Assembly (NCBI GenBank): GCA_948467495.1 | Contig: CAOKEO010000003.1 | Location: forward strand, 9,602 to 73,601 | Direction of reading: 5' to 3' | Source of the DNA: an uncultured Clostridium sp. | GTDB taxonomy: Bacteria > Bacillota > Clostridia > TANB77 > CAG-508 | Length of the DNA stretch: 64,000 nt | Shown: positions 37,379-57,067 of the stretch, one piece after another | Numbering within the stretch: position 1 is the stretch's first letter | Layout: each line of letters opens with the position of its first letter | Made by a program: the position numbers and the translations under genes | Notes under the pieces: generated by a model | Database searches by the model: none | Told to the model about the DNA's origin: nothing | What the model saw: the letters and a program-made list of their open reading frames with translations, nothing else

Positions 37379-38267
37379 CTAATCTACCTTTATTTCTTTT
37401 CTTCTTACGATTTCATTTGCTGCTTTCTTCCTATGAAATTCATCTAATACATACACTCTTTTTATAATCCATTCTAATCCTGTTTTTATCCAATTTGCTC
37501 CATGGCCGGAAATATATACTCTTTCTAAATAATCTGTATCATAGTTGTTTTCTAAATAAGTCATAACTTCTTGCCATAAATCATCTATTTTCTTTGTGTA
37601 AATTCCTCCAAAATGTTTTTTATTTTTTAGCTCAAATTTTTTACTTTTGCTACTATACTATCTATACAATGATTAGTCTTGGTTCTTCTATTCCTCCTTT
37701 TTGTAAATGCACATAATTTTTATCTGCCATGATATATATTCTTTTTACTTTCTTTTTGCTCTTTTTTCTTCTGACATTTCTGACTTAAAATCTAATTTAT
37801 TAATTTGATTTTTATGGTTTGTTTTGATATTTCTGTCTCGTATGATGCTTTCTGTCTAGCCTTTTTATAGGACATTTCTCTTGCTTCTTCTATTAATTTT
37901 TCTTTTACATTTGGTAACATTCTTTCTCTTTTTTCTAGTTTTAAAAATTGGTCTAACTGATAAATTCTTTCTTTAGTCTCCTTATCTTGATAATATCTTC
38001 TTTTAAAATTTACTTCTCCAAAGATTGATATGATTGTTCTATCATCTTTTTCTAAGTATTCAAATTTTTCTTTTCTGTCTTTTAATTCTAAAATTATATT
38101 TTCTGCACATTCTACTAAAAATTGTGTTACTTGGTTTCCGAACACTATCATTTTGCTTTCTAAATCATTTGTAAAATCTGATATCCTTTTTCTGTTATTG
38201 AATTTTTTAAACAATTTGCTACTAAAGTAATGACTTTTTCATTAAAATCGTGTAAAATATTTTCCAT
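37379..38267 (-). mobile_element. degraded ISLre2/UPF0236-family transposase gene (multiple frameshifts, internally deleted)
   Basis: Fragments MENILHDFNEKV.., ..RTIISIFGEVNFKRRYYQDKETKERIYQLDQFL.., ..ADKNYVHLQKGG.. and ..YISGHGANWIK.. lie in different frames. Total length is far below that of an intact transposase. Confidence 0.7.
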
Positions 38268-38395
38268 AAGATACCCCTTTCAATTGGTTAAAAATCTTTC
38301 TGTTTTATTTATTTTAACACAATTTTGATTTAGATATCTTTGTTTTTATTTAATTAAATTTCCCGAATTTATTTTACACTAACTTTATTTTTTAA

Positions 38396-38496
38396 CCTGT
38401 CCCAAAAAACACCTATAGGGATAATCAGTGCCTGTCCCAAAAGTAACCAAAAGGGATAGTCGGTGCCTGTCCCAAAACACACCCACAACGCACCAC
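38396..38496. repeat. CCTGTCCCAAAA..AGGGATAAT tandem element (about 2.7 units)
   Basis: CCTGTCCCAAAAAACACCTATAGGGATAATCAGTG / CCTGTCCCAAAAGTAACCAAAAGGGATAGTCGGTG / CCTGTCCCAAAACAC... Confidence 0.8.
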
Positions 38497-38520
38497 AAAA
38501 AAAGCCACCATATTGGTGGA
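38497..38520 (-). terminator. intrinsic terminator of the ribosomal alpha operon
   Basis: Minus strand CCACCA-ATA-TGGTGG followed by CTTTTTTT, 18 nt after the rplQ stop. Confidence 0.7.
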
Positions 38521-38537
38521 TTTTCTTTTTTTAATAA

Positions 38538-39065
38538 TTATATAAGTTGTAATATAGCAACTTCTGCTCCGTCACCTCTTCTAGGTCCTGCTTTGATAAT
38601 ACGTGTATATCCTCCCACATTTTTACCAGCATATTTTGGAGCGATTTCATTGAATAATTTTGATGGTAAATCAATATTATTTCCTTTGTTGTCTTTTACT
38701 TTGTTTAATTTTCTCATCATTTTTCTTCTAGCATTTAATCTAGTTGGCATATCTTTTTGTCTTTGCTCTGTTGTTTCTTCTTTTACTACTTTTAGATATT
38801 CTTTACCATTTTTGCTTTTTACTAATTCTGTTTCTTTATTACCTTTTTCATCTAATTTAGCTTTTACAACTTTAACATCTACCATTTCAAAGTTATCTTT
38901 TTCTTTGATAGCAAGTGATATTATGCTGTCAACAATGGATTTTACTTCTTTTGCTCTAGCTAATGTTGTTTCAACTTTTCCATACATGATTAAATCTGTT
39001 GTTAAGTTTTTTAACATTGCCATTCTGATGTCTGTTGTTCTACCTAATTTTCTATTTGTAGCCAA
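38538..39065 (-). CDS. rplQ: 50S ribosomal protein L17 (with a large internal insertion)
   Basis: (M)ATNRKLGRTTDIRMAMLKNLTTDL...GGYTRIIKAGPRRGDGAEVAILQL. TTG start 39065 with GGAAGGTG upstream. Confidence 0.9.
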   Translation of the reverse strand: MATNRKLGRTTDIRMAMLKNLTTDLIMYGKVETTLARAKEVKSIVDSIISLAIKEKDNFEMVDVKVVKAKLDEKGNKETELVKSKNGKEYLKVVKEETTEQRQKDMPTRLNARRKMMRKLNKVKDNKGNNIDLPSKLFNEIAPKYAGKNVGGYTRIIKAGPRRGDGAEVAILQLI

Positions 39066-39189
39066 TTTTTTCACCTTCCTTTTTCTAATGACAAGGGACA
39101 CTCTTTTCTATTGGTTTATCCACTTGAGTTAAGGAATGTCCCTTTCCCCTAGTGAATTAGTGCTTACCCTATTTTATAAATTTTTCTTA

Positions 39190-40137
39190 CTATTCATCCT
39201 CTGAGGCAAAATCTAATCCCAATGAATGCAATTTTGCTGTTACTTCATCAAATGACTTTTTACCTAAATTTCTTACTTTCATCATATCCGTTTCAGATTT
39301 ATTGGTTAAATCTTCAACGGTAGCAATTCCTGCTCTTTTTAGACAGTTGAATGATCTAACAGATAATTCTAATTCTTCAATTGACATTTCTAATACTTTT
39401 TCTTTTTTAGATTCTTCTTTTTCAATCATAACTTGTGTATTTTTGGTTGCTTCTGATAAATCAATAAATAATTCTAGATGTCCTGTCATTACTTTAGCTG
39501 CTAAGCTTAAAGCTTCATGTGCTTTTAGGCTTCCATCTGTCCATACTTCAATCACTAATTTATCATAATCCACCATTTGACCAACTCTAGTATTTTCTAC
39601 TTGATAGTTGACTTTTTTAACTGGTGTATAAATAGAGTCAATTGGAAGCACAGATATATCCTGATTTGCTTTTTTATTTTTATCAGCAGAATTATATCCT
39701 CTACCTTTATCTGCTGTCATTTCCATTTTTAAACTTCCACCTTCAGAAATAGTAGCAATATGTAACTCTGGATTTAAGATTTCAACAGTTCCATCTGTAA
39801 TGATATCTCCTGCCTTAACTTCTCCTTGACCTTTCATATCAATTCTTAAAATTTTATCTTCATTGTCATCAAATTTTAATCTAACATTTTTCAAATTGAT
39901 AATAATTTCTGGCACATCTTCTACTATATTGGGAATGGTAGAAAATTCATGTAATACTCCATCTATTTTCACACTTGTTATAGCACATCCTGGAAGTGAT
40001 GAAAGTAAAATTCTTCTCAAAGAATTTCCTATTGTTACTCCATAACCTCTTTCTAATGGCTCACATACAAATTTTGCATAATTATTTGTATCATCAACCT
40101 CTAGACATTCAATATTTGGCTTTTCAAATTCTATCAT
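39190..40137 (-). CDS. rpoA: DNA-directed RNA polymerase subunit alpha
   Basis: 315 aa: [15 protein letters not shown]-terminal domain [16 protein letters not shown]. Confidence 0.97.
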
Positions 40138-40165
40138 TTTTACCTCCTAATATTTTAAAAAATTA

Positions 40166-40792
40166 TTATTTTGAGTAAAGCTCTACTATTAAATGTTCTT
40201 CAATTGGAATATCTATATCTTCTCTAGATGCTAATCTGATGACTTTACCGCTTACGTTTGCATTGTCTTTTTCTAGCCATTCTGGAACTGGTCTTTTACT
40301 TGATTCTTCTACATTTATTTTGATAGTAGCATTATCTTTTTTACTTTCTCTTACTGTAATAACATCTCCTGCTTTTACTAGATAAGATGGAATATCTACT
40401 TTTTTACCATTTACTTCAAATTGAGCATGATTTACGAATTGTCTTGCTTGTGCTCTCGATGTTCCAAATCCTAATCGATACACTACATTATCTAATCTAC
40501 TTTCTAATATTTGTAATAAATTTTCACCAGTTACACCTTTTTTATTAGAAGCCATTTCGAAGTATTTTCTAAATTGTTTTTCTCCTACCCCATAATATGC
40601 TTTTGTTTTTTGTTTTTCTCTTAATTGCATTCCGTATTCAGAAAGTTTTGCTCTTTTTTGTCCATGTTGACCTGGTGCATAGTTTCTTCTAGAAATACTA
40701 CATTTATCGGTATAACATCTTTCACCTTTTAAGAACAATTTTTGTCCTTCTCTACGACATCTACGACATTGTTCGTCTTTATATCTTGCCAT
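40166..40792 (-). CDS. rpsD: 30S ribosomal protein S4
   Basis: [26 protein letters not shown]... Start ATG 40792 with AAAGGAG upstream. Confidence 0.96.
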
Positions 40793-40864
40793 TTTCTTAC
40801 TCCTTTCTTCTAATGACAAGGGATACACTAATGTGTTGACCCTTACTTAATTTTTCTATCCATT

Positions 40865-41260
40865 TTATACTCTTCTTCTTTTTGGTGGTCTACAACCATT
40901 GTGTGGTATTGGTGTCACATCTTTAATGCTACTTAATTCAAGACCTGCTGTTTGAAGAGCACGAATTGCTGCTTCTCTACCTGAACCAGGCCCTTTTACA
41001 AATACTTCTACTGATTTTAATCCATGTTCCATAGCAGCTTTAGCAGCTGTTTCTGCAACTTGACCTGCTGCATATGGTGTACTTTTTCTTGAACCTTTAA
41101 ATCCTAATTCTCCAGCACTTCCCCATGCGATTGCATTTCCTTGTGTATCTGTAATAGTAACGATTGTATTATTAAAACTAGAATGAATATGTGCAGCTCC
41201 TTTTTCAATGTTTTTCCTATTTCTTCTAGCTACTTTTTTCGTTGTTACATTTTTAGCCAT
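40865..41260 (-). CDS. rpsK: 30S ribosomal protein S11
   Basis: [18 protein letters not shown]...[16 protein letters not shown]. Confidence 0.97.
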
Positions 41261-41396
41261 TTTGCTTTTTCCTCCTTATTCAAAAATTTCATTCTGAATT
41301 TCTATCTTTCTTTTAAGAAAATTTTTCACTGATTCTATAAAATTGATTAAAAATTATTTTACAATTAGCAAATTTAACCTTTTATCAATTGCTATG

Positions 41397-41583
41397 AAAT
41401 TGATTAAAAATAGTAAGATGTGCAATTTTCACATTCATTTTAATCCGAAGGTGTACATTGGTACATCGAGGTTATGATGATTACAATCTCACTTAGTTCA
41501 ATTGCATAAGTTATCTGTAGTCTGCTTTGCTTCACACAGCTAACTCAAAATTGTGCAGATTGCTGCTTTCAATCGATTTCACT
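41397..41583. repeat. composite repeat: long imperfect palindrome (core GAAGGTGTAC-ATTG-GTACATCGAGG) with a 68-bp CACAATCTCAC..CACACAGC module (41479..41546) inserted in its right arm
   Basis: The arms GAAATTGATTAAAAA.. and ..CTTTCAATCGATTTC are complementary. The inserted module recurs at six other sites. Confidence 0.75.
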
Positions 41584-41952
41584 CTATTTTTTGCTTTTGC
41601 TAACCAACTTCCTAGGACCCTTTCTAGTTCTAGCATTCGTTTTAGTTCTTTGTCCTCTAACAGGAAGACCTCTTCTATGTCTTAGTCCTCTGTAGCATCC
41701 TATTTCAGTAAGTCTTTTGATATTAAGAGCAACTTCTCTTCTCAAGTCTCCCTCTACTGTATATGATTCGTCAATTACTTTTCTAATATCATTTACTTGA
41801 TCATCTGTTAAATCTTTAATTCTAGTATCTGGATTTATACCAGCTTTTTCAAGAATTTTTCTAGAACTTGATACGCCTATACCATAAATGTAGGTAAGTC
41901 CTATTTCCACTCTTTTTTCCTTTGGTAAATCTACTCCTGCTATACGAGCCAT
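41584..41952 (-). CDS. rpsM: 30S ribosomal protein S13
   Basis: [26 protein letters not shown]... GGAGGTG 9 nt upstream of ATG 41952. Confidence 0.97.
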
Positions 41953-42177
41953 ATTTTTTTGCACCTCCAAATTTTTTAATACTTACAAATTCGCTTTGCT
42001 CATCTGTATCAATTTTTTATTTGTCCTAAAAACATTTAAAGGTGAAATGCTACTGGTGTTTACCCCAGTCTCTTTAACGTTTTAAGACATATATATAAAC
42101 ACAAATTTGATATGTAACCCCTATTTTACAAAGGCTCACAGCCGCTACCTAATTTGTGTTATGAACAAATATAAGGA

Positions 42178-42291
42178 TTAACCTTGTCTTTGTTTGTGTT
42201 TAGGGTTTTCACAAATAACTCTAATCACACCTTTTCTTTTTATAATTTTGCATTTATCACATATTTTCTTTACTGATGGTCTTACTTTCAT
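42178..42291 (-). CDS. rpmJ: 50S ribosomal protein L36
   Basis: My translation is [37 protein letters not shown]. It is below the ORF-track size cut-off. GAGGAGGTG upstream. Confidence 0.93.
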
Positions 42292-42511
42292 TTCTGCACC
42301 TCCTCTTTCTTGACAGGGGACACACCTTACTGTGTTGTTTTTTACTTAGGTTAAGGAATGTCTCCTCCCCTTAGATTAAGTGTCTCTACTTTTTAGTCCT
42401 CTGTTTTGTAGTTTCTATATTGGGTTAATTTTTAACTTTTTTACTATCCATACCAAAACAAATAAAATTATTGTTGTTCATTCCTGATTGCTCAAGCAAC
42501 AAGGTAATCAT

Positions 42512-42730
42512 TTACTTTGCTCTCCAAGTAATTCTTCCTCTTGTTAAGTCATAAGGTGACAACTCTACTTTCACCTTATCTCCTGGTAAAATTTTAATAT
42601 AGTTCATTCTCAATTTTCCAGAAATATGAGCTAATATCTGATGTCCATTTTCAAGTTCCACTTTGAAATTAGTATTTGGTAAAGATTCTACTACTTTTCC
42701 CTCTACCTCAATCACATCTTCTTTCGCCAA
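42512..42730 (-). CDS. infA: translation initiation factor IF-1
   Basis: (M)[52 protein letters not shown]... TTG start 42730 with AAGGAGGG 7 nt upstream. Confidence 0.95.
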
Positions 42731-42819
42731 TTTTTTTCCCTCCTTAAAGAGCACTTTTCCTTGATTATTATGCAAAATATGGCTATTTTGCATAATAACT
42801 ATTAGATTATATACTATTT

Positions 42820-43590
42820 TTAAAGTATTGTCAATATTTCCGGCTCTTTTTCTGTAATTAAAATGGTATTTTCATAGTGAGCTGCCAAACTCCCATCTTC
42901 TGTCATAATCGTCCACCCATCATCTAATTCTAAAATATTAGGCTTTCCTGCTATTACCATGGGTTCTATCGCCAATGTCATACCTGGTTCCAATCGAATT
43001 CCCCTTCCTGCTTTTCCATAATTAGGAATCCCTGGATCTTCATGCATTTCTTTTCCAATGCCGTGTCCTTGAAACTCTCTTATAACAGAATATCCTTGTG
43101 AACGTACATACTCTCCAATCGCATGACATACATCACCAATTCGATTTCCTACTTTAGCATATTGAATGCCTTCAAAAAATGCTTGTTTGGTCACTTGCAC
43201 TAGTCTTTCCGCCTCTTTTGATGCTTTCCCAACAAGAAAGGTTCTAGCAGCATCGCCATGATAGCCATTTTTTAAAGCAACTGTATCAATACTTACCACA
43301 TCGCCCTCTTTTATAATTCTATCTTTAGAAGGAATTCCATGAATTACCTCATCATTAATAGAAACACAAAGGGAAGCTGGAAAAGGTGGTACTCCTTTGA
43401 TTCCAATATCATATCCTTTTTCTGCTGGAATCGCCCCCAAACTTCTCATTTTTCGTTCTGCTATTTGGTCTAATTCCCATGTTGACATCCCTGGCTTGAT
43501 ATGTTGTTCTAGTTCCTGATATGTTAATGCAACAACTTTACATACCTCTTGCATTAAAGTAATCTCTTTTTTTGACTTAATGGTTACCAA
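42820..43590 (-). CDS. map: type I methionine aminopeptidase
   Basis: 256 aa with metal ligands in ..[14 protein letters not shown].., ..GHGIG.. and ..AIEPM... TTG start. Confidence 0.93.
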
Positions 43591-43671
43591 CTTAACTCGT
43601 CCTCTCTCTTTTCTAGTTAATGCTATTTATCTACCTAAGGTGTATCTATTATTTTTTACACCTTAAATAGA

Positions 43672-44331
43672 TTACACTGATTTTATGATATCTTCTGCTA
43701 CATCTTTTCCCATCCTATTAATAGAAGTACTTACTGTCTCTGTTCTTAAAACTCCTTTGTTTTCGTAGTATTCTACTAATGGGCTGGTTTGTTCTTCGTA
43801 AATTTGTAATCTCTTATGAATTGCCCCTGAATTACAATCATCTTCTCTTTGTTTCAAAGAAGAACCACATTTATCGCAAATCCCATCTACTTTTGGTGGA
43901 TTTAATTTAATATTATAAGTTGCTTTACAATCTTGATTCGTACATACTCTTCTTGTTAGCATTCTATCAATCAACTCTTCTTTTGGTGTTTGTAAATTAA
44001 TGACTAAATCTACTTTTTTTCCAAACTCTTGTAAAATTTCATCTAATTTTTCAGCTTGTTGTATGGTTCTTGGAAAACCATCTAAAATAGCACCATTTTG
44101 TGCATCCTCTTCTTTTAAACGATTGATTACCATAGGAACCGTTATCTCATCTGGTACCAATTCTCCTTTTGCCATATATTCATTTGCTTTCATTCCTAAT
44201 TCTGTTTTTTCACTAAGATTTTTTCTGAAAATATCCCCTGTTGATATCTGTGGCCACCCCTTTTGTTGGCTAATTAGTCCTGCTACTGTTCCCTTTCCTG
44301 TCCCTTGTGCTCCTAACATGATAATTACCAT
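43672..44331 (-). CDS. adk: adenylate kinase (Cys4 zinc lid)
   Basis: MVIIMLGAQGTGKGT P-loop, lid CTNQDCKATYN...CDKCGSSL. Confidence 0.93.
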   Translation of the reverse strand: MVIIMLGAQGTGKGTVAGLISQQKGWPQISTGDIFRKNLSEKTELGMKANEYMAKGELVPDEITVPMVINRLKEEDAQNGAILDGFPRTIQQAEKLDEILQEFGKKVDLVINLQTPKEELIDRMLTRRVCTNQDCKATYNIKLNPPKVDGICDKCGSSLKQREDDCNSGAIHKRLQIYEEQTSPLVEYYENKGVLRTETVSTSINRMGKDVAEDIIKSV

Positions 44332-44608
44332 ATAAATCCCTCTTTTCATCTTATAAAAATTAGATTATTATATAAATTGTCTAAAACGCAATTAATAATC
44401 TTTATCATATCTATTCTTTTCCTATTCATAAACATGATAAAAATTATTAAATAGAACAACAGTGGCATGTTAAAATTTCTTCACCTTTTAGATTAGTTTT
44501 CATGCCACACCCGTTGTTCGTTCGCCAAAATTGCAAGCAATTTTCTGTAAAATGCTTTCTATTATAGGAAATTCAGAGAATTTTCCTATAATAGAACAAA
44601 ACTAAGAT

Positions 44609-45928
44609 TTATTCTAAGAAACCTTTATAGTGTCTCATCGCTAATTGAGATTCTAGTTGTTGTACCGTTTCTAAAGCAACTCCCACAACAATTAAGATAG
44701 ATGTCCCACCAAATGCAATATTTAGATTGGTAAATCTCAATAACATTGGCAAGATAGCTATTACTGCTAAGAATAATCCTCCAAATACCGTTAATTTAGA
44801 TATAATAGATGATAAATATTCAGTGGTTGGTTTACCAGCTCTAATTCCTGGTATAAATCCGCCATTTTTCTTAATATTATTGGATACTTCTGCTGGATTA
44901 AAAGTAGCATACGTATAGAAAAAAGTAAATCCAACAATTAATAGTAAATAAACAAGAGCATTTGCTATCGAATAGCTAATTCCTACATCAGATGTAGAAG
45001 TAGCAATTGAAAAATTATATAATCCTGCTAAAAATCCCGTATGACTTGCTATATCTGGTACAAAAATTTGAATAATCATAGCTGGAAATGTCATAAAAGA
45101 AGAAGCAAAAATAACTGGCATAACTCCTGCCATAGCAAGTTTTAATGGAATATGTGTACTTTGTGCACCTACCATTTTTCTTCCCACTACTTTTTTAGAA
45201 TATTGTACTGGTACTCTTCTTTCTGCTTGTTGAACAAATACTACTCCTGCTACTAATACTAAAGCACCTATAACAATTCCAATTGCTGTCAATAATCCTG
45301 TTGTGCTAAAGCCTTGTTCTGTCATTATTTGATTCCATAAAGTTGGCAGACCACTTGGTAATCTTGAAATAATACCAATAAAGATTAATAAAGAAATTCC
45401 ATTTCCAATTCCTTTATTGGTAATTTGGTCTCCTAACCACATAAGAACAGATGTACCTGCTACTAGTCCAACCACTACTAATGAACCTGTTAGGAAACTT
45501 TGATTCACAAATATACCAGAAGATTTATAAGATAAATAAACTCCAATTGCTTCTACTAACGCTAAAATAATAGTTAATATTTTGGTATATCTATTTATTT
45601 TTTGTCTTCCTTCTTCTCCGCCTTCTTTGGTCAATTTTTCTAAAGCTGGTATAATCATAGCCAATAGTTGAATCACAATAGAGGCTGTTATGTATGGACT
45701 AATTGACATAGCAAAAACAGAAAATCTAGAAAATGCCCCTCCTGAAATCATATCAATTAATCCTGCAAATCCATTCGTATTTCCCATTGCTTCATTTAGT
45801 GCTACACTATTTACACCTGGTACTGTAATAAAGCACCCAAGCCTAAATACAACAATTAGCACTAATGTGTATAATAGTCTTTTTCTTACATCTGGCGTCT
45901 TTATTGCATTTTTGATTGTTTTAAACAA
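44609..45928 (-). CDS. secY: preprotein translocase subunit SecY
   Basis: 439 aa, 10 TM helices, typical SecY sequence. TTG start directly after the rplO stop with GAGGTGG upstream. Confidence 0.96.
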   Translation of the reverse strand: MFKTIKNAIKTPDVRKRLLYTLVLIVVFRLGCFITVPGVNSVALNEAMGNTNGFAGLIDMISGGAFSRFSVFAMSISPYITASIVIQLLAMIIPALEKLTKEGGEEGRQKINRYTKILTIILALVEAIGVYLSYKSSGIFVNQSFLTGSLVVVGLVAGTSVLMWLGDQITNKGIGNGISLLIFIGIISRLPSGLPTLWNQIMTEQGFSTTGLLTAIGIVIGALVLVAGVVFVQQAERRVPVQYSKKVVGRKMVGAQSTHIPLKLAMAGVMPVIFASSFMTFPAMIIQIFVPDIASHTGFLAGLYNFSIATSTSDVGISYSIANALVYLLLIVGFTFFYTYATFNPAEVSNNIKKNGGFIPGIRAGKPTTEYLSSIISKLTVFGGLFLAVIAILPMLLRFTNLNIAFGGTSILIVVGVALETVQQLESQLAMRHYKGFLE

Positions 45929-46363
45929 TTAAACCACCTCAGCCTTTCCGCCTAAAGCTTCAATTGCTTCTTTGGCTTTTGCTGTAAATCTTTTTGCTTT
46001 AATATTTAACTTCTTGTCTAATTTTCCTGTTGCTAACACTACGATTCCATCATTAACTTTTCCGATAATTCCTTCTGCCAATAAGGTTTCTGCTGTTACT
46101 TCGGTAGCTTTTGATAGATTTAACATTTTTAATGTTACCTCTGTATAAGTTTTGGCATGAATATTGGTGAAACCTCTTTTTGGTAATCTTCTATATAATG
46201 GTGTTTGACCACCTTCAAAACCTCTTCTTACGCCTCCACCACTTCTTGCTTTTTGTCCTTTATGTCCTCTTCCAGATGTCTTTCCATTTCCAGAAGCCAT
46301 TCCACGACCTACTCTATTTCTCTTTACTTTACCTACAGTTGGTTTTAACTCATTTATTTTCAT
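45929..46363 (-). CDS. rplO: 50S ribosomal protein L15
   Basis: [53 protein letters not shown] upstream of ATG 46363. Confidence 0.95.
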
Positions 46364-46419
46364 TTGGTATTTTGCACCTCCTCTTTCTAAGTTAGCCGTT
46401 AGCGACAAAGGAGCTTTAC

Positions 46420-46636
46420 GGATAACTTATGCAAAATGCGTAAGCATTTTGTAATCCTTAATTTCCTTCTTTTGCCTTTCTCTACCTATGATGAATTATG
46501 GATAACATGCACAAAATGCGCAAGCATTTTGTAATCCTTAATTTCCTTCTTCTGCCTTTCTCTACCTATGATGAATTATGGATAACATGCAAAATGCGTA
46601 AGCATTTTGTAATCCTTAATTCTCTTCTTTGCCTCT
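46420..46636. repeat. tandem repeat, 80-bp period, 2.7 copies, occupying the position where rpmD (L30) normally lies
   Basis: Units start at 46420, 46500 and 46580. Each has an 8-bp hairpin CAAAATGC-GTAA/GCAA-GCATTTTG. Confidence 0.9.
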
Positions 46637-46650
46637 TAGCTATATTCACA

Positions 46651-47136
46651 TTATAAAATATCTTCTACTTTTTTACCTCTCTTTTTAGCCACTTGTTCTA
46701 CTGTTTGCATAGCCTTTAATCCTTCAATTGTAGCATAAACAACATTTCTTGGATTATTGGTTCCAATAACTTTTGTTCTAATATTTCTATAACCAGCTAG
46801 TTCCATAACTGGTCTTACGCTTCCACCTGCTATGATACCAGTACCAACTGCTGCTGGTTTTAGCATAACTTTAGCACTACCAAAAGTCCCAACATATTCA
46901 TGAGGTACAGTTGTTTCAACGATTGGCACTTCCACTAAGTTCTTTTTCGCTTCTTGGATTGCTTTTTTGATAGCATCTGGAACTTCTGCTGCTTTACCAT
47001 TTCCTACACCTACATGACCATTTTCGTCTCCTACTACTACGACAGCACTAAATCTAAAAGTTCTACCACCTTTAACAACTTTAGCAACTCTATTAATAGC
47101 TACAACCTTTTCTTTTAATTCATTTTTCTCTTCCAT
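46651..47136 (-). CDS. rpsE: 30S ribosomal protein S5
   Basis: [26 protein letters not shown].... Confidence 0.97.
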
Positions 47137-47229
47137 AGGTTTTTGTTAATCCTCCTTTTCTTGTTTTTGTCAAGGGACACTTTATTTATCCATAAGTGTT
47201 TACCCTATCTTAATTTCTGATATTTATTT

Positions 47230-47589
47230 TTAGAACTTAAGTCCACCTTCTCTTGCTGCTTCTGCTAGTTCTTTAACAACACCATGATAAATATATCCAC
47301 CACGGTCAAAAACAACGGTTTCAATCTTTTTATCAGCTGCTTTTTTAGCAATTAAAGTACCTAATTCTTTAGCGGCTTCTTTATTAGCATGTTTTGTTTT
47401 GATTTCCTTATCTAATGTTGAAGCTGATACTAATGTATTTCCTGCAACATCATCGATAATTTGTACATATAAATTTGTATTACTTCTATATATACATAAT
47501 CTTGGTCTTTCTAGTGTTCCAGATATCTTTCTTCTTACACGAATGTGTCTTCTCGTTCTTTCCATTTTTCTATCTGTCTTTTTAACCAT
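47230..47589 (-). CDS. rplR: 50S ribosomal protein L18
   Basis: [25 protein letters not shown]...[27 protein letters not shown]. Confidence 0.97.
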
Positions 47590-47632
47590 TTCCTTACTCC
47601 TTTCTAAAAATTGAGTTTTTACTATTCATTCA

Positions 47633-47759
47633 TAATTCAAATCAAATTTGATATATTGTGCATTTTTCAGATTGATTACAAGCCGAAGGTGTACGTTGGT
47701 ACATCGAGGTTTGAAATCAATATGGAAAATGTACAAAATGTTAATTTTCATTTGAATTA
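47633..47759. repeat. 127-nt imperfect palindrome filling the rplF-rplR spacer
   Basis: Pairing partners sum to 95392 (e.g. 47681:47711). Inner hairpin GGTGTAC-GTTG-GTACATC. 5 G:T pairs and no A:C pairs on the plus strand. Confidence 0.85.
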
Positions 47760-47761
47760 GT

Positions 47762-48298
47762 TTATTTTCCAGTCTTACCTTCCTTACGTCTAATAACCTC
47801 ATCAGCGTATTTAATCCCTTTTCCTCTATACACTTCTGGTGGTCTTTTCATTCTAATAACTGCTGCTGTTTGACCAACTAATTCTTTATCAATTCCATTT
47901 ACAATAATCGTATTAGCATTTGGAACATCAAAAGTAATTCCATCTGGTGCTTCAAAAATAACTGGATGTGAATAACCTAAAGTTAAATTTAAGTTATTTC
48001 CTTGTTTTGCTACTCTATATCCAACACCATTAATTTGTAATTCTTTACTATAGCTACTGGTTACACCAATAATCATATTATTGATTAATGTCCTAGTTAA
48101 GCCATGTAAGCTTCTGTTAGCTGGTTCATCATCTTTTCTAGTAACTGTAATGATATTATCTTCCATTTTAACAGAAATATTTTTATGTATTTCTCTTGCT
48201 AATGTACCTTTTGGTCCTGTTACAGTAATATTTTGTCCTTCTATTTTCACTTGTACTTCTGATGGTACTGTGATAGGTTTATTTCCTATTCTTGACAT
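47762..48298 (-). CDS. rplF: 50S ribosomal protein L6
   Basis: MSRIGNKPITVPSEVQVKIEGQNITVTGPKG.... Confidence 0.97.
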   Translation of the reverse strand: MSRIGNKPITVPSEVQVKIEGQNITVTGPKGTLAREIHKNISVKMEDNIITVTRKDDEPANRSLHGLTRTLINNMIIGVTSSYSKELQINGVGYRVAKQGNNLNLTLGYSHPVIFEAPDGITFDVPNANTIIVNGIDKELVGQTAAVIRMKRPPEVYRGKGIKYADEVIRRKEGKTGK

Positions 48299-48380
48299 TA
48301 TTTTCCCTCCTTTTTTAATGATTACAATCTCACTTTGCTCGATTGCATAAATTATTTGTAGTTCGCTTCACACAACTAAC

Positions 48381-48779
48381 TTACCATACATAGGCTAATA
48401 CTTCTCCACCAACACCTAATTCTCTAGCTTCTTTATCTGTTTTTAGTCCTTTTGATGTAGAAATGATAGCAATTCCTAATCCATTTAATACCTTTGGTAA
48501 TTCTTCTTTGGATGCGTACACTCTTAATCCTGGTTTACTAATTCTTTTTAAACCATCAATTACTCTGGTTCCTTTTTCATCATATTTTAGTGTAATTCTT
48601 ATGATTCCTTGTGTATCATCTTTGATTTCTTCAAAAGATTTTATATATCCTTCTTTGAATAGAATTTCAGCAATTCCTCGTTTCATATTGGAAGCTGGAA
48701 CATCTACTGTTTTATGCTTTGAACTATTTGCATTTCTAATTCTTGTTAACATATCTGCAATTGGATCTGTAATGTTCAT
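48381..48779 (-). CDS. rpsH: 30S ribosomal protein S8
   Basis: [18 protein letters not shown]...GGEVLAYVW. Confidence 0.97.
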
Positions 48780-48866
48780 GAATTACTTACCTCCTTTTCT
48801 TCTTTCTTAGCAAGGGGCTTATTTCCCCTTCTTATCTTTATTTTAGCATTTATTTATTTGTTAAAA

Positions 48867-48981
48867 AAATCAAAATTAGTATATTGTGCATTTTTGTTAA
48901 GTTTTTCAAGATGAAGGCGTACACGAGTACGTCGAAATTTGAAAAACTTACTGAAAATGTGCAAGATGCTGATTTTCATTT
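48867..48981. repeat. 115-nt imperfect palindrome in the rpsN-rpsH spacer
   Basis: Pairing partners sum to 97848. Inner hairpin GGCGTAC-ACGA-GTACGTC. 7 G:T pairs and no A:C pairs on the plus strand. Confidence 0.85.
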
Positions 48982-48987
48982 ATTTTA

Positions 48988-49173
48988 TTACCAGCTGGCT
49001 TTTTTTACACCTGGAATCTCTCCCTTATGTGCTAACTCTCTAAAACATACACGGCATATACCATATTTTCTGATATAGCTATGTGGTCTTCCACATAATT
49101 TACATCTGTTGTATTCTCTTGTTTTATATTTTTGTGGTCTAGCTTGTTTTATTTTCATTGACTTTTTAGCCAT
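48988..49173 (-). CDS. rpsN: 30S ribosomal protein S14, zinc-binding type Z
   Basis: 61 aa, [23 protein letters not shown]. Confidence 0.96.
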
Positions 49174-49194
49174 AATTTTACTCCTTTCTTACAG

Positions 49195-49477
49195 TTCACA
49201 ATCTCACTTTGTTCGATTGCGTAAGTCATCTGTAATTCGCTTAGCTTCACACAGCCTACTACTGAATGTTCACAATCTCACTCGTTCGATTGCGTAAGTC
49301 ATCCGTAATTCGCTTCGCTTCACACAGCCTACTACTGAATGTTCACAATCTCACTTCGTTCGATTGCGTAAGTCATCTGTAGTTCGCTTCGCTTCACACA
49401 GCCTACTACTGAATGTTCACAATCTCACTCGTTCGATTGCGTAAGTCATCTGTAGTTCGCTTCGCTTCACACAGCTG
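49195..49477. repeat. tandem array (3.8 copies, 73-74 bp) of the CACAATCTCAC..GATTGCGTAAGTCATCTGTA..CACACAGC module
   Basis: Units start at about 49195, 49269, 49342 and 49416. The last unit overlaps the final codons and stop of rplE. Confidence 0.92.
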
Positions 49478-50012
49478 ACTTAAATGGCATTCCTAATGCT
49501 TGTAATAATTCTTTTGATTCTTCGTCTGTTTTGGCTGTTGTTACAAATATGATGTCCATTCCTCTTAATTTATCAACTTTGTCATATTCAATTTCAGGGA
49601 ATATTAATTGTTCTTTTACTCCCATAGAGTAATTTCCTCTACCATCAAAAGAGTTTGTTGATACTCCTCTAAAATCTCTTACTCTTGGAAGGGCTACATT
49701 GAATAATTTGTAAGCAAAGTCATACATTTTGTCTGCTCTTAATGTTACTTTACATCCTATGTTCACACCTTCTCTTAATTTAAATGCTGCAATTGATTTT
49801 TTTGCTTTTGTAATAACTGGTTTTTGTCCTGTTATTTGCATTAAATCATTCATCGCATTTTCCAATGCTTTTGGATTTTCTTTTAAATCTCCTAATCCTA
49901 TATTAATTACTATCTTATCAAGTTTTGGTACTTGCATCACTGATTTATATTCAAATTTTTTCATTAATGCTGGGATTACTTCCTTTTCATATTGTTCTCT
50001 TAATTTTTCCAT
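49467..50012 (-). CDS. rplE: 50S ribosomal protein L5
   Basis: [20 protein letters not shown]...[15 protein letters not shown]. Start ATG 50012. Confidence 0.95.
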
Positions 50013-50038
50013 AATCAACGAATCCTCCTTTCTTTCTT

Positions 50039-50347
50039 CTATTTTATGGTCGCACCGCATTTTTTACAAACACGTACTTTTTGGTCTTTTTCTATTTGAT
50101 ATCCAATTTTTGTAGCTTTACCACATTTTGAACATACTACATTTACTTTTGAACTTGGTATAGCACATTCAATTGCTATGATTCCGCTTTCTTCTCCTTG
50201 TTTTCTGGCTTTTACATGTTTTTTTCTAACATTTACACCTTTTACAATGATTTTATCAGTCTTTGGATTGATTTGTAACACTTCTCCTGTTTTACCTTTG
50301 TCATTTCCTGATAAAACTTGAACGTTATCACCTTTTTTGATTCTCAT
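50039..50347 (-). CDS. rplX: 50S ribosomal protein L24
   Basis: [23 protein letters not shown] (KOW motif). Confidence 0.96.
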
Positions 50348-50400
50348 TTAGGAATTTCCTCCTTTTCTTAGTTTTTATTTTTATTCTCTGTTGTAAAACG

Positions 50401-50640
50401 AATTAGAATTAGTATATTGTGCATTTTGCTGATACTGTTAAGCTTTAGCTGTTACAGTATCAGTATGCAAATGAATTTTATATTCATTTGCCCTCATTTC
50501 ACTAACTTCAAGCTGAAGGCGTACTCTTGTATGTCGAAATTATAATGACTACAATCTCACTTCGTTCGATTACATAAGTTATCTGTAGTTCGCTTTGCTT
50601 CACACAGCTAACTCAAAAATGCACAAGATGCTGATTATAA
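50401..50640. repeat. composite repeat: outer palindrome carrying two different inserted modules
   Basis: Left arm 50401..50430, double-hairpin module 50431..50512, core hairpin GAAGGCGTAC-TCTT-GTATGTCGAAA, CACAATCTCAC module 50547..50614, right arm AAAAATGCACAAGATGCTGATT. Confidence 0.75.
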
Positions 50641-50646
50641 TTTGTT

Positions 50647-51015
50647 TTATAGAACTTCTGGAGCTAATGAAAGAATTTTCATATACTCCTTCTCTCTTAA
50701 CTCTCTTGCAACTGGTCCAAAGATACGAGTTCCCTTTGGCGTTCCATCTTCTTTAATAATAACAGCTGCATTTTCATCAAATTTTATATATGAACCATCT
50801 GCTCTTCTTAATCCACTCTTAGATCTAACAATAACAGCTTTTACAACATCACCTTTTTTAACAACGCCACCTGGTGTTGCTGATTTAACAGAAGCAACTA
50901 TAACATCTCCTATATTAGATGTTTTTCTAAATGATCCTCCTAAACATCTGATACACATGATTTCTTTCGCCCCTGTGTTGTCTGCTACTTTTAATCTTGA
51001 TTGTTGTTGTATCAT
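50647..51015 (-). CDS. rplN: 50S ribosomal protein L14
   Basis: [23 protein letters not shown].... Confidence 0.98.
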
Positions 51016-51031
51016 TTTGGTTCCTCCTTTC

Positions 51032-51295
51032 CTACTTTATATCTGCTTTTTCTACAACTTCAACTACTCTCCATCTTTTATCTTTAGAAAGTGGTCTTGT
51101 TTCCATTACTTTTACTTTATCACCCATTTGGCAAACATTTTCTTCATCATGTGCTTTTAATTTGTAAGTTCTTTTTACTGTTTTACCATATACTTTATGA
51201 CTAACACTAGTTTGAACAGCTACTACTACTGTTTTATCCATCTTATTAGATGTTACTGTACCAATCATAACTTTACGAAGATTTCTTTCTTCCAT
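51032..51295 (-). CDS. rpsQ: 30S ribosomal protein S17
   Basis: [16 protein letters not shown]...[23 protein letters not shown]. Confidence 0.97.
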
Positions 51296-51421
51296 TTAGA
51301 TTTCTCCTTTCTAATAATGTCAGGGGACACACCTCTTCCCCTTAGGTATTCCACTTAAGTTTGGGAAATAGCCCCTCTCCTTGCTTTTAAGTGTTTACCT
51401 TTTTGCTAACATATTTCATTT

Positions 51422-51628
51422 TTATGCTTTAGCATCTAGCATTTTTCTTTCTGTCAATACGGTATTTATTTTAGCTATATCTTTTTTTACCTCTTTTATT
51501 TTCATAGGATTATCTAATCCGTTGGTAGCTAAACTAAATTTTAATTTGAACAATTCTGTTTTTAGTTCACCTAATTCTTTCTCTAAATCTGGTGAAGACA
51601 TTTCTCTTATTTTATTTATCTTCATCAT
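51422..51628 (-). CDS. rpmC: 50S ribosomal protein L29
   Basis: [34 protein letters not shown] 51628 is preferred over the track's GTG at 51634. Confidence 0.93.
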
Positions 51629-52055
51629 TTTCACCTACCTTTTCTGTTTCTCTTGCTACAAATTTTGTTTTGTTAGGTAGTTTGTTCATAGCAAGTCTTA
51701 AGGCTTCTTTTGCAGTTTCTTCTGATACTCCAGAAATCTCAAACATTACTCTTCCTGGTTTTACAACTGCAACCCAATATTCTGGCGCACCTTTACCTTT
51801 ACCCATACGAGTTCCAATAGGTTTTGCTGTAATTGGTTTGTCTGGAAAGATTTTAATCCAAACTTTTCCACCTCTTTTTATATAACGAGTCATAGCAATT
51901 CTGGCTGCTTCAATTTGATTTCCTGTAATTAAAGCACCTGTTACTGCTTGGATTCCATATTCTCCATCTGTAACTTTATTTCCTCTTGTTGCCTTTCCTC
52001 TCATTCTACCTTTTTGTACTTTTCTATGTTTTGTTCTTTTTGGCATTAATGGCAT
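51612..52055 (-). CDS. rplP: 50S ribosomal protein L16
   Basis: [22 protein letters not shown].... Confidence 0.97.
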
Positions 52056-52711
52056 TATTGGTCTCCTCCTTCCATTTTCTTCTCTGGAAGAACTTCTCCT
52101 TTATAAATCCAAACTTTTACACCGATTTTACCATAGGTTGTATCTGCTTCTGCAAATCCATAATCAATATCAGCTCTTAAAGTTTGTAGTGGAATATTTC
52201 CTTCTTTATAGAATTCAGTTCTAGCCATGTCAGCTCCACCTAATCTTCCAGATACAGCAGTTTTAATTCCTAAAGCACCTGCTTTCATAGATTTTTGCAT
52301 ACATTGTTTCATGGCTCTTCTGAATGAAATTCTTCTTTCTAATTGTCCTGCAATATTTTCTGCTACTAATTGAGCATCTGTATCCATATTTTTAACTTCT
52401 ACGATGTTTAAATTAACATCTTTACCAATTAATTTTGTTAATTCTGCTTTTACACTTTCTACACCTGCTCCACCTTTTCCAATAACAATTCCTGGTTTTG
52501 CCGTGTGTAAATTAACCTTGATTGCTTTTGCTGTTCTTTCAATTTCAATTTTAGAAATACCAGCAAGATATAATTTTTTCTTTAAAAATTTACGAATCTT
52601 TTGATCTTCTACTAAATAATTTGCAAAGTTTCTTGAATCTGCATACCATTTAGAATTCCAATCTTTTATGATTCCAACTCTTACTCCTGTTGGATGTACT
52701 TTTTGTCCCAT
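52055..52711 (-). CDS. rpsC: 30S ribosomal protein S3
   Basis: [24 protein letters not shown].... Confidence 0.98.
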
Positions 52712-52718
52712 ATTATTC

Positions 52719-53084
52719 CTAGTCCTCCTTTTCTTTCAAAACTATTGTAATGTGACTTGTTCTTTTTCTAATTCTTACTGCTGAACCTTTTGCAGCTGGA
52801 CGTATTCTTTTTAAAGTTGGTCCTTGATTGCTATAGATTTCAGCAACATATAATTTCTCATGTCTCATGTCATGATTATTTTCAGCATTTGCGATAGCTG
52901 ATTTTAATAATTTCTCTATGATTTCTGATGATGCTTTTGGTGTGAATTTTACGATAGCTAAAGCTTCATCTACATCTTTTCCTCGAATTAAATCTGCTAC
53001 GATTTTAACTTTTCTAGCTGAAATCCTTGCATATTTCAAGGTTGCTTTTGCTTCGTTTCTAACTAATGTTTCTTGCTCTTGCAC
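52719..53084 (-). CDS. rplV: 50S ribosomal protein L22
   Basis: [25 protein letters not shown]... GTG start with AAGGAGG upstream. Confidence 0.95.
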
Positions 53085-53156
53085 TTTTCTTACCTCCTTA
53101 GATTAGTGTCTAGGGGCTACTTATCCATTTAAGTTTTTCCCCTTCTATTTGTCTCT

Positions 53157-53432
53157 CTATTTATTTGTTTTCTTATCTCCTGCATGACCTTTGAAGGTTC
53201 TTGTAGGAGCAAATTCACCTAATTTATGACCAATCATTTCTTCTGCTATATAAATTGGAACATGTTTTCTTCCATCATGTACAGCAATTGTATGACCAAC
53301 CATTTGTGGATATATTGTTGAAGCTCTAGACCATGTCTTTAAAACTTCTTTATTTCCAGATTCATTCATAGCTTCTACTCTTTTTAGTAGTTCTGGTGCT
53401 ACATATGGTTTTTTCTTGCTTGATCTTGACAT
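53157..53432 (-). CDS. rpsS: 30S ribosomal protein S19
   Basis: [30 protein letters not shown].... Confidence 0.97.
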
Positions 53433-53460
53433 ATTATAAATGTCCTCCCTTCTTTTTTTA

Positions 53461-53576
53461 GTAAGTTATCCGTAAAACTCACTTCGTTCGCTAACGGCTT
53501 TTCTATTGTTCACAATCTCCCTTTGGTCGATTGCGTAAGTTATCCGTAGAGCTCGCTTTGCTCGCTAACGGCTAAC
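53461..53576. repeat. 1.6 copies of the CACAATCTC..GATTGCGTAAGTTATCCGTAG..GCTAACGGCTAAC module variant
   Basis: Begins immediately after the rplB stop (TGA-GTTAGCCGTTAGCG in mRNA sense). An inverted fragment lies at 46391..46432. Confidence 0.8.
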
Positions 53577-54404
53577 TCACTTTCTTCTCTTTACAATAAA
53601 TTTATTAGATTGTTTCTTTTTATTTCTTGTTTTATATCCAAGAGCTGGTTTACCCCAAGGTGTCATTGGTCCAGCGTGTCCTACTGGTGCTCTACCTTCA
53701 CCACCACCATGAGGGTGATCTACTGGGTTCATTACAGAACCTCTAACAGTTGGTCTAATTCCCATATGTCTTTTTCTACCAGCTTTACCAATTTTAACAT
53801 TCTCATGATCACTATTTCCGATTACTCCGATAGTAGCTCTACAGGTTGCTAAAATTAATCTCATTTCTCCTGATGGAAGTCTTACATGGGCATATTTTCC
53901 TTCTTTTGCCATTAATTGTGCACTTTGTCCTGCTGCTTTTACTAATTTTCCACCTTGTTTTGGATTTAACTCAATGTTATGAATTAAAGTACCTACTGGA
54001 ATTGAACTAATTGGCATACAGTTTCCTGGTTTGATATCAGCTGTTTCTCCAGATATCACTTTATCTCCATCTTTTAATCCTTGTGGAGCTAAGATATATG
54101 CTTTTTCTCCATCTTCGTATTCCACTAATGCAATATTAGCACTTCTGTTTGGATCATATTCAATTCCTATTACAGTTGCTGCCATATCGTCTTTTCTTCT
54201 TTTAAAATCTACTATTCTATATTTTTGTCTATTTCCACCACCTTGATGTCTTACTGTGATTCTTCCATAGGAGTTTCTTCCTGCATTTTTCTTTTTCTTT
54301 GCTAATAAAGATTTCTCAGGAGTTTTCTTTGTAATTTCTCCAAAGTCTGAAACTGTCATATTTCTTCTAGATGGTGTATAGGGTTTGAAGTGTTTCATTC
54401 CCAT
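53577..54404 (-). CDS. rplB: 50S ribosomal protein L2
   Basis: [14 protein letters not shown]...[15 protein letters not shown]. Start ATG 54404 (AAAGGAG upstream). Confidence 0.96.
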
Positions 54405-57052: not shown

Positions 57053-57067
57053 TGTAATTTTCCCTCC

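Follow-up and report, generated by a model that had tools for sequence, protein, structure and literature searches.

A strand-specific hairpin family of ~88 nt adjoining the Shine-Dalgarno sequences of ribosomal protein cistrons in uncultured gut Clostridia

We analyzed recurrent hairpins that lie just upstream of Shine-Dalgarno (SD) sequences in a 64,000-nt stretch of contig CAOKEO010000003.1 from an uncultured Clostridium sp. (hereafter, the window) and found that a single ~88-nt structured RNA element, present in several copies, accounts for them; the element is strand-specific, SD-adjacent, and mostly intercistronic. The part of the window concerned is the S10-spc-alpha ribosomal protein (r-protein) cluster, which runs on the minus strand from rpsJ (56729-57052) to rplQ (38538-39065) in a genome of ~30% G+C. 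The reading that we favor, with a probability of about 0.5, is that the element serves as a cis-acting intercistronic mRNA cassette for processing, stability, or insulation of the ribosome binding site (RBS).

Results

The hairpins of the window belong to one element

A preliminary description of the window had reported an AAGGG...CCCTTG(T/A)CA hairpin just 5' of the SD of seven ribosomal cistrons. We read the seven sites on the minus (mRNA) strand, and a recurrent hairpin in this position was borne out, with the 3' arm present at five genes, far above the level in shuffled sequences. The sequence GTGTCCCYTGWCA, allowing one mismatch at most, occurred five times in the 64 kb versus 0.08 matches expected, and none of 100 shuffles reached five. 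All five matches are on the minus strand and end 21-31 nt 5' of a start codon:

39089-39101, minus strand, GTGTCCCYTGWCA match upstream of rplQ
40814-40826, minus strand, GTGTCCCYTGWCA match upstream of rpsD
42311-42323, minus strand, GTGTCCCYTGWCA match upstream of rpmJ
47168-47180, minus strand, GTGTCCCYTGWCA match upstream of rpsE
51318-51330, minus strand, GTGTCCCYTGWCA match upstream of rpsQ

The tails described for these five genes are thus present, whereas the hairpins before rpsH and rplV are real but have degenerate tails. Rather than seven simple hairpins, the sites proved to be copies of a single ~88-nt element, three of them full length, two internally deleted, and two degenerate. 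The description of a variable loop above a constant G/C stem base also holds, but it merged two different pairings: the partner of the 3' arm is an internal GGGGACA block in full-length copies and the 5' end of the element (AGGG..ACAC) in deleted ones. The copies, with their scores against the covariance model of the element (R1), are as follows:

39085..39171, minus strand, full-length rplQ copy (R1 75.6 bits, E = 9e-15, model positions 1-88; TTG start at 39065)
39131-39144 (AAGGGACAUUCCUU) and 39093-39106, minus strand, long-stem arms of the rplQ copy
42307..42391, minus strand, full-length rpmJ copy (R1 59.4 bits, E = 3e-11; ATG at 42291)
42353-42366 (AGGAGACAUUCCUU) and 42315-42328 (AAGGUGUGUCCCCU), minus strand, arms of the rpmJ copy
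51314..51402, minus strand, full-length but diverged rpsQ copy (R1 59.9 bits, E = 3e-11; ATG at 51295)
47168..47206, minus strand, internally deleted rpsE short form, AGGGUAAACACUU-AUGGAUAAAUA-AAGUGUCCCUUGACA (R1 17.4 bits, E = 0.06; ATG at 47136)
40814..40844, minus strand, rpsD short form, AAGGGUCAACAC-AUUA-GUGUAUCCCUUGUCA (3' arm with 1 mismatch; fold of -10.2 kcal/mol; ATG at 40792)
48808..48830, minus strand, rpsH mini-hairpin, AAGGGGAAAUAAGCCCCUUGCUA (R1 E = 9; fold of -9.4 kcal/mol; ATG at 48779)
53107..53144, minus strand, rplV short form, AAGGGGAAAAACUUAAAUGGAUAAGUAGCCCCUAGACA, ending in ...GCCCCUAGACA (fold of -12 kcal/mol; GTG at 53084)

The rplQ copy lies directly 5' of the SD; its UGUCA tail is followed by UUAGAAAAAGGAAGGUG, and its centroid fold includes the long stem. 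The minimum free energy (MFE) fold of the rpmJ copy likewise includes the long stem (z = -2.05). The GGGGACA block of the rpsQ copy is mutated to GAGGGGCUAUUUCCC, and this copy therefore has a two-hairpin fold, consisting of a 5' hairpin (GGUAAACACUUAA/UUAAGUGGAAUACC) and a 3' hairpin (GGGGAA...UCCCCU); the orthologous rpsQ copy in one relative (L002) keeps an intact block. The 3'-arm match of the rpsE short form is exact, and the 5' end of the element pairs directly with this arm. Two relatives (L001 and L007) have the same short form at rpsE, and other species have full-length copies there. Both the rpsE and the rpsD hairpins are weak partial matches to R1. The mini-hairpin at rpsH reads AAGGGG-AAAUAAG-CCCCUU with the degenerate tail GCUA, in a slot that holds full-length copies in L030, L031, and L042. 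No R1 match was obtained for the rplV short form; its loop (CUUAAAUGGAUAAGUA) is homologous to that of the rpsE short form, with which it is held in common, and eight species have full-length copies in the rplV slot. The rpsE and rplV short forms still have both the 5' end and the 3' arm of the element, along with what is left of the GUGGAUAA loop segment. The short forms of the window are internal deletions of the ~88-nt element.

The element abuts SD sequences in sense orientation

A SecY-based search taking one genome per GTDB species yielded 80 related loci (SecY identity, 84-97%), all of them from metagenome-assembled genomes (MAGs) of uncultured gut "Clostridium sp." or "Clostridia bacterium," e.g., Clostridium sp. 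CAG:343. The comparison set comprised 81 related operons totaling 1.29 Mb. All 129 matches to the anchor sequence of the element in these operons were in sense, 16-33 nt 5' of a start codon; apart from two before rpsJ, they precede 12 different r-protein genes. The 9-mer CCCYTGWCA was found 123 times in sense versus three times in antisense, and an SD and start codon follow within 45 nt at 122 of the 123 sense matches. Because of these counts and those from the window, we conclude that the observation is real and far from chance.

When loci L001-L080 were scanned with R1, we obtained 151 matches, 150 of them in sense, and 100 further loci gave another 215. The related gut Clostridia MAGs hold ~300 distinct copies in all (308 distinct hits with a hidden Markov model). 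The element is almost always found between co-directional cistrons, on the mRNA strand, and the distance from the end of the stem to the SD core is 11-18 nt in 208 of 230 copies. Typically, the GACA/GUCA tail is followed by UUAGAAAGGAGG, an extended SD.

Copies elsewhere were sought by a genome-wide exact-pattern scan, which returned at least 120 stretches and from which element counts are given among the matches listed. A few chance matches fell in other phyla, but nearly all stretches belong to the one MAG clade; as far as sampled, the element is confined to a clade of uncultured low-GC gut Clostridia. Among the matches listed, 132 clade copies have a downstream open reading frame (ORF): 104 precede r-protein genes, 10 precede tig, dnaK, prfA, ffh, tsf, or rpoB, and 18 precede other genes, including uppP in at least nine species. 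The listed r-protein targets outside the spc/alpha part include rpsJ, rplK, rpsG, and rplS, and some targets were checked by Pfam. A second scan, for the CCCUU haplotype, was complete and gave 21 clade copies, 20 of which precede r-protein genes (rplT included), plus eight chance matches elsewhere. Both scans together place 124 of 153 copies (~81%), among the matches listed, before r-protein genes, an enrichment of ~20-fold or more if such genes make up ~3-4% of all genes, which is our own estimate. The non-ribosomal copies are mostly intercistronic as well (grpE-dnaK, rpsB-tsf, rbfA-nrnA, accD-accA, and rsmH-ftsL-like). In two species (L115 and L218) the element precedes a gene for a 430-aa membrane protein without a Pfam match.

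At least 17 r-protein genes are preceded by the element: those of 12 occupied slots in the cluster (rplV, rpsC, rpsQ, rplN, rplX, rpsH, rplF, rpsE, rplO, rpmJ, rpsD, and rplQ) and rpsJ, rplK, rpsG, rplS, and rplT. Seventeen other genes of the cluster were never preceded by it in the 31-79 species available for each, among them six with variable, often long spacers (rplB, rpsS, rpsN, rplR, rpsK, and rpsM), which lacked it in 46-71 species. The L19 protein encoded by rplS in this clade (L093, L095, L177, L185, and others) is 189-217 aa in length and carries a long acidic/lysine-rich C-terminal tail that extends beyond the Pfam L19 domain (residues 2-112).

A covarying 14-bp stem forms the core of the element

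From an alignment of upstream regions we derived the ~88-nt consensus aAgGGUaAuCAcuaAUUCAcAAGGGgAGGGGACAUuCCUUaaCCcAAGUGGAAaUGACCaAaaGGuAAGgUGUGUCCCCUGACA. Its core is a 14-bp stem, AGGGGACAUUCCUU/AAGGUGUGUCCCCU (model positions 27-40 with 67-80), followed by GACA or GUCA, typical copies having a predicted energy of ~-30 kcal/mol. Conservation is highest in the 3' arm and the GWCA tail. In an unbiased mutual-information scan the top pairs were 37:70 (CG 128 / UA 79), 28:79 (GC 169 / AU 32 / GU 11), and 38:69. Across 145 distinct sequences, pairing of the long stem reached 93.8%, and 7 of the 14 pairs have changed on both sides; none of 500 shuffles reached the observed scores, slid controls were 41-51% paired, and a second sequence set gave similar results. 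Five of the stem pairs, including the best-covarying ones (37:70 and 38:69), are absent from the R1 structure, so the alignment was not fitted to those pairs. At least 10 of the 14 stem pairs were present in the MFE structure of 143 of 228 copies, a typical copy folding at -32 kcal/mol.

Outside the stem, pairing is also possible between the 26-nt 5' tail and the apical loop (4-8:55-59 and 16-20:48-52), with some covariation; a pseudoknot would result. In a second class of copies (type II), the GGGGACA block can instead pair with a local UGUCCC segment, and the element may adopt alternative conformers. At many loci (e.g., L029, L026, and L031), an SD-like sequence, AAAAGGAGAUAACUUUAGC, is conserved as an extension 20 nt 5' of the element in type I copies, a subset of which has AUGG at the element start, with a frame of 26 codons open to the UGA in CUGACA. 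The extension looks like a fossil SD and start codon rather than a conserved upstream ORF (uORF). Inspection by eye for K-turn and CsrA-type motifs in the element revealed nothing convincing.

The family turns over like a repeat

The family behaves like a repeat, with presence/absence differences, tandem arrays, near-identical intragenomic copies, and decay to mini-forms. Between 0 and 17 copies are found per locus, and according to the presence of the element the spacers range from 6 to >300 nt between species. One relative (L073) has three tandem arrays with a period of ~98-110 nt:

L073 2302-2780, five copies at rpsC
L073 7027-7406, four copies at rplF
L073 8641-8947, three copies at rpsE

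Within arrays, the tail CCCCUGACA is intact in the SD-proximal copy only. The nearest relative of a copy was at the same slot of another genome in 52 cases, at another slot of another genome in 41, and at another slot of the same genome in 18, the last at 84-97% identity. The most widely occupied slot is that of rpsD, where the core is present in 23-26 of 62 species, depending on whether the match is strict or loose. Short or mini-forms are found there in 15 species, including that of the window, some of which lack any full-length copy. The mini-forms, AAGGG(A)-loop-(U)CCCUUGWCA (AAGGGA-loop-UCCCUUGUCA), have unrelated loops and are kept above all before rpsD.

A comparison of filled and empty sites, which was not a systematic test, shows the insertion lying after the stop codon and before the SD; the 5' flank is AT-rich, and no duplication stands out clearly. 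A single long hairpin makes up the element, which is not bounded by terminal inverted repeats. Like REP-type repeats, it has many dispersed hairpin copies that vary between genomes; it lacks their occurrence in both orientations and their independence from the function of the neighboring gene. The preliminary description, while correct in placing a hairpin at these SDs, had overlooked the clade-wide ~88-nt repeat family, its mobile-like dynamics, and its copies beyond the r-protein operon.

Nested arrays of stem halves, (AAAGGGGACAUUCCUAAGUC) x2-3 followed by (AAGGUGUGUCCCCUGUCAUCU) x2-4, were seen in the Bacillota bacterium isolate Ch29, among other short repeats and with no gene start after them, so that another genome has this stem sequence in a different arrangement:

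L087 1-150, nested stem-half array
L118 ~4900-5020, minus strand, nested stem-half array
L154 ~1930-2030, minus strand, nested stem-half array

Other hairpins, repeats, and promoters of the window

Hairpins built on other words had also been described next to non-ribosomal SDs. Both copies of TGAGACAA..TTGTCTCA (3756-3790 and 33044-33076) do abut an SD when read in the sequence. Three copies of TTGCCAA..TTGGCAA are likewise real, but the copy at 11659-11690 is followed by UUUUUAAAAAAUUUU, a terminator-like U-run. A further hairpin, GGGGACAU-AGAUA-AUGUCCC (33294-33350, minus strand), has core words as in the element stem (R1 11.8 bits, E = 1.1) and lies just past a stop codon, far from the r-protein cluster.

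The r-protein cluster contains three additional sets of repeats. Family A has 10 copies in the window, all inside the cluster (41478-57210, mRNA strand), including the following:

49193-49477, mRNA strand, four tandem family-A units
57077-57210, mRNA strand, two family-A units
48319-48383, mRNA strand, family-A copy
53507-53571, mRNA strand, family-A copy

Each unit measures ~65-73 nt, contains two small hairpins, and ends in ...GAGAUUGUGAACA. Several copies end at an SD (rpsJ, rpsN, rplF, and rpsS), and the rplE stop codon lies inside the first unit. Matches in relatives numbered 25 in sense versus none in antisense, and the family is present in nine genomes, the window included. Other sense-only hairpin repeat families are found in equivalent slots, and family A, for instance, replaces the element before the rpsJ SD of the window.

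Families B and B2 form imperfect hairpins ~130 nt in length (-31.4 kcal/mol, z = -4.6) in the rplF-rplR, rpsN-rpsH, rplW-rplB, rplN-rplX, and rpsM-rpsK spacers, with 82 sense matches versus one antisense match in the related operons, in 41 species, and no match in Rfam:

47623-47753, family B/B2
48851-48981, family B/B2
54734-54864, family B/B2
50402-50541, family B/B2
41432-41573, family B/B2

Family C consists of three tandem 80-nt units (46416-46653) that fill the rpsE-rplO spacer, the usual place of rpmD (L30). No L30 ORF was found in this spacer of the window, and the spacer is as short as 17 nt in relatives, so L30 is absent from that position in the whole clade.

Two perfect TTGACA-17-TATAAT promoters are present in the window, both on the minus strand. 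One (42806-42834) lies between map and infA and scored 12/12 in the promoter scan. The other (~57420-57449) lies ~330 nt 5' of rpsJ and would give a long S10 leader ending in two family-A repeats. A 106-nt direct repeat with units TTTTGGGACAGGCACYGAYTATCCCT (83% identity) is located at 38391-38496 and 21908-22013; the former copy is just 3' of rplQ, beside a transposase-like ORF (~37.5-38.3 kb).

Searches of known families

We compared the window with Rfam 15 (cmscan, 4,227 models). At gathering thresholds, the only matches in the window were two tRNAs. Allowing E values up to 5 for positions 38000-57000 added chance-level matches only, and at E up to 1 nothing overlapped the element copies of L029, a locus with ~15 R1 matches. 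The loci compared, ~2 Mb in total, contain no rRNA gene. Text searches of the literature retrieved no description of the element.

Discussion

The preliminary description had proposed an SD-linked, RNA-level role in cis, as a processing site, an RNase barrier, or a translational coupler. Such a role would fit the sense-only orientation, the co-directional spacers, the constrained distance to the SD, and the conserved 3' arm and tail, as well as the deletion derivatives that retain the stem base. We favor the reading that the element acts in cis on the polycistronic mRNA, where the hairpin would mark or protect a processing point and endonucleolytic cleavage would fall near the junction of UG and ACA. 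After cleavage, the hairpin could serve as a 3' stabilizer for the upstream segment, and the hairpin together with the strong SD could serve as a 5' cap for the downstream cistron. The RBS may also be insulated from upstream structure and from terminating upstream ribosomes, making each cistron an independent initiation unit. The family would presumably spread by duplication or recombination, of which the tandem arrays and near-identical intragenomic copies are suggestive, and decay by internal deletion to mini-forms that keep the putative functional core, the stem base and GWCA tail. The two family-A units at the rpsJ slot, where relatives have the element, favor a generic structured-element role, or tolerance, over a ligand pocket. 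In Firmicutes, RNase-Y-type processing beside stem-loops and Stab-SD protection are known, and the preference of RNase Y reported for a G followed by A or U is matched by the G-A junction of UGACA. Archaeal r-protein operons provide a parallel in which processing sites are over-represented just 5' of RBSs and processed mRNAs are more stable and better translated (PMC5499594).

Several observations count against this cassette reading. RNAalifold, run on both MAFFT and covariance-model alignments, returned a trivial local hairpin and did not recover the long stem; the copies of the window exceed shuffles in folding stability by a modest margin only (z = -0.4 to -2.05); and the pairing of the 5' tail with the loop, at 73-80% paired, has moderate support. 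Within the stem, A.C mismatches occur no less often than G.U pairs, so that one cannot cleanly tell selection for RNA pairing from conservation of a hairpin at the DNA level. The element is also dispensable: 35 of the 81 species have no copy in the r-protein operon, and each slot is empty in most species. Copies at orthologous slots are 0.70 identical, compared to 0.675 for non-orthologous copies, and between close genomes orthologous-slot identity is 0.76 versus 0.90 at 4-fold degenerate sites, where codon bias holds identity high and so limits the value of the comparison. This low identity indicates turnover or replacement rather than strict conservation.

The preliminary description left out a selfish-repeat explanation, which needs to be weighed. 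The element could be a selfish or neutral DNA repeat, REP/MITE-like or mobilized by an IS200/IS605-type transposase, with a functionless RNA; we consider this unlikely, although the least so of the alternatives. Under this explanation, the hairpin and its short 3' flank would be signals for a single-stranded DNA transposase, or copies would spread by microhomology at SDs, the sense bias would arise from strand-specific insertion into exposed non-template/lagging-template DNA of highly transcribed operons, and the pre-SD position would reflect purifying selection in very short spacers. IS200/IS605 ends and REPs likewise combine a hairpin with a short conserved 3' motif, and the 0-17 copies per locus, the arrays of up to five copies (L073), the 84-97% identity of intragenomic copies at different genes, and the turnover at orthologous slots are what such a repeat would produce. 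Empty ancestral spacers measure 15-50 nt, so any tolerated insertion is necessarily near an SD. The AAAAGGAGAUAACUUUAGC extension resembles a fossil of an SD and start codon duplicated with the element, all genes concerned are on the G-rich (leading) strand in the window, and A.C mismatches are not rarer than G.U pairs. On the other side, we saw no terminal inverted repeats, target-site duplications, or transposase associated with the element, although no systematic search was made; the transposase-like ORF at 37.5-38.3 kb of the window is unrelated to the element, and the MAGs were not searched for transposases. Typical MITE/REP families avoid essential operons, which form "repeat deserts" (PMC3184786), whereas ~81% of our copies, among the matches listed, precede r-protein genes. 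Even at tig, with ~740 nt of upstream room, the element abuts the SD. The tail is intact only in the SD-proximal copy of an array, mini-forms with diverged loops retain the stem base and tail across species, the six variable, often long spacers were never occupied in 46-71 species, and no copies were found in viral contigs. A shared translational operator is a further explanation, which we regard as improbable: the stem base and the GWCA beside the SD would be the binding site of one trans-acting factor, such as S4 or another r-protein, another RNA-binding protein, or a small ligand of the pseudoknotted full-length form. Many translation cistrons would then be jointly repressed or activated, replacing operon-specific autogenous control and translational coupling. 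It is similarly doubtful that a clade-specific translation-regulon operator, maybe derived from an S4-type rpsD operator, was copied before at least 17 r-protein cistrons and other translation genes, so that one factor or signal would set the translation or processing of each individually. An operator would explain why the sequence of the 3' arm and tail, beyond its pairing, is conserved (>90% identity at model positions 72-79), with G>A changes in the 5' G-run tolerated more than changes in the 3' C-run, and why SD spacing is fixed within ~4 nt either way. It would also suit the regulon-like gene set (17 r-protein genes plus tsf, fusA, prfA, tig, ffh, dnaK, and rpoB), the slot specificity (12 genes occupied versus 17 never), the pseudoknot-like fold of 5' tail and loop with some covariation, as in known r-protein operators, and the rpsD slot, the most widely occupied one, where the core is present even in species that lack full-length copies; an ancestral S4-type operator would lead one to expect this. 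However, the SD is not sequestered in the consensus fold, mini-forms of ~5 bp plus tail make a complex ligand pocket unlikely, and unrelated families share a slot (family A before rpsJ in the window, the element in relatives). Presence/absence differences between close species argue against an essential regulon, and there is no similarity to any Rfam r-protein leader.

That the element is a known signal in disguise, i.e., an internal sigma-70 promoter, a terminator or attenuator, a uORF, or a described ribozyme or riboswitch, is very improbable; each of these readings was tested and rejected. The tail (TTGACA/TTGTCA/CTGACA), CCCTTGACA, does include a canonical -35 hexamer, and two tails scored 9/12 in the promoter scan. 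However, only these two pair with weak "-10" sequences, which overlap the start codon, so that transcripts would lack the SD, and promoter-like sites are not enriched (51 found versus 60.6 expected). The consensus can be read from position 2 without a stop until the UGA in CUGACA, with an AUG there in some type I copies, but no conservation of the AUG was seen, and type II copies differ in length and carry a UAG (GGGUAGGGG) in frame. A terminator or attenuator does not agree with a stem followed by GACAUUAGAAAGGAGG and no U-run, and no sense-strand terminator was called at any copy of the window. Ribozymes and riboswitches found no support in Rfam (window region, E up to 5; L029 locus, E up to 1), and a riboswitch is also at odds with conservation in the stem and 3' tail, an SD 11-18 nt outside the stem, the lack of a U-run, and mini-forms that retain the stem base only. 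An autogenous r-protein leader would occupy one position, whereas the element precedes at least 17 r-protein genes as well as non-ribosomal ones. Sequestration of the SD by a UUCCUU segment is possible in type I only, type II having AUCUU, and is therefore not a feature of the family. A phage origin was rejected since no element match was found in viral contigs.

As a rule, few parts of a bacterial genome are as compact and free of repeats as r-protein operons, and r-protein balance is usually attributed to a small number of operon-specific autogenous operators and to translational coupling. In a widespread uncultured gut lineage, we find coupling distances broken and strand-specific structured cassettes located exactly at individual RBSs. 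If functional, the element would be a new and tractable RNA motif with ~300 natural variants and covariation, a natural model for the partitioning of polycistronic r-protein mRNAs into independently expressed units, and possibly a genetic part (RBS insulator or processing site) for low-GC Firmicutes. If selfish, it would be an unusual repeat that targets, rather than avoids, the most essential and most transcribed operon. The operator explanation, if true, would replace the scheme of one autogenous operator per operon plus coupling.

Among known systems, intergenic repeats such as REP/BIME, ERIC/IRU, BOX, RUP, and Correia resemble the element in being multicopy imperfect palindromes of 30-150 nt in intergenic or intercistronic positions. 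These repeats are likewise co-transcribed, variable between strains or species, and sometimes tandem, and REP acts as a 3' mRNA stabilizer. Such repeats occur in both orientations and genome-wide, whereas the element is found in sense only, abutting SDs, and ~81% before r-protein genes among the matches listed. Autogenous r-protein leaders share with it a structured, lineage-restricted RNA directly 5' of an r-protein RBS, possibly with a pseudoknot; examples are the S4 pseudoknot of the Escherichia coli alpha operon, the S15 pseudoknot of rpsO, the S8 site of spc, and the S4, S15, L10, and L20 leaders in Rfam. Known leaders have one position in an operon and mimic the rRNA site of one protein encoded downstream, in contrast to a variable element at 17 or more r-protein genes and others. 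Closer in arrangement are RNase processing sites of Firmicutes, with a hairpin beside a strong SD within an operon whose cistrons need different or robust expression, as in RNase Y cleavage of Bacillus subtilis cggR-gapA, 5' stem-loop and Stab-SD stabilizers, and the Staphylococcus aureus sae operon. Those sites are single, locus-specific, and defined by mapped RNA ends, whereas the element is one family that recurs at many cistrons.

Some intergenic hairpin repeats alter the mRNA stability of neighboring cistrons, and ERIC creates an RNase E site (PMC3184786). In methanogenic archaea, processing of r-protein operons upstream of and proximal to RBSs tunes stoichiometry (Qi et al. 2017, PMC5499594), but the signal there is a uridine-rich ruler of Archaea and not a repeat family, unlike the repeated hairpin that we describe. 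The intercistronic expression element (IEE) of plastids is also a short intercistronic RNA, proposed or shown to give stable, translatable monocistronic units (PMC2230500). The IEE works in plastids through binding of a PPR-type protein, has a single natural locus, and has no similarity to our element in sequence or structure. The element, new to Rfam and to the literature searched, is best filed as a relative of transcribed hairpin repeats and of r-protein cis-elements, and its unusual trait is the reuse of one family at the RBS of many cistrons of the translation apparatus.

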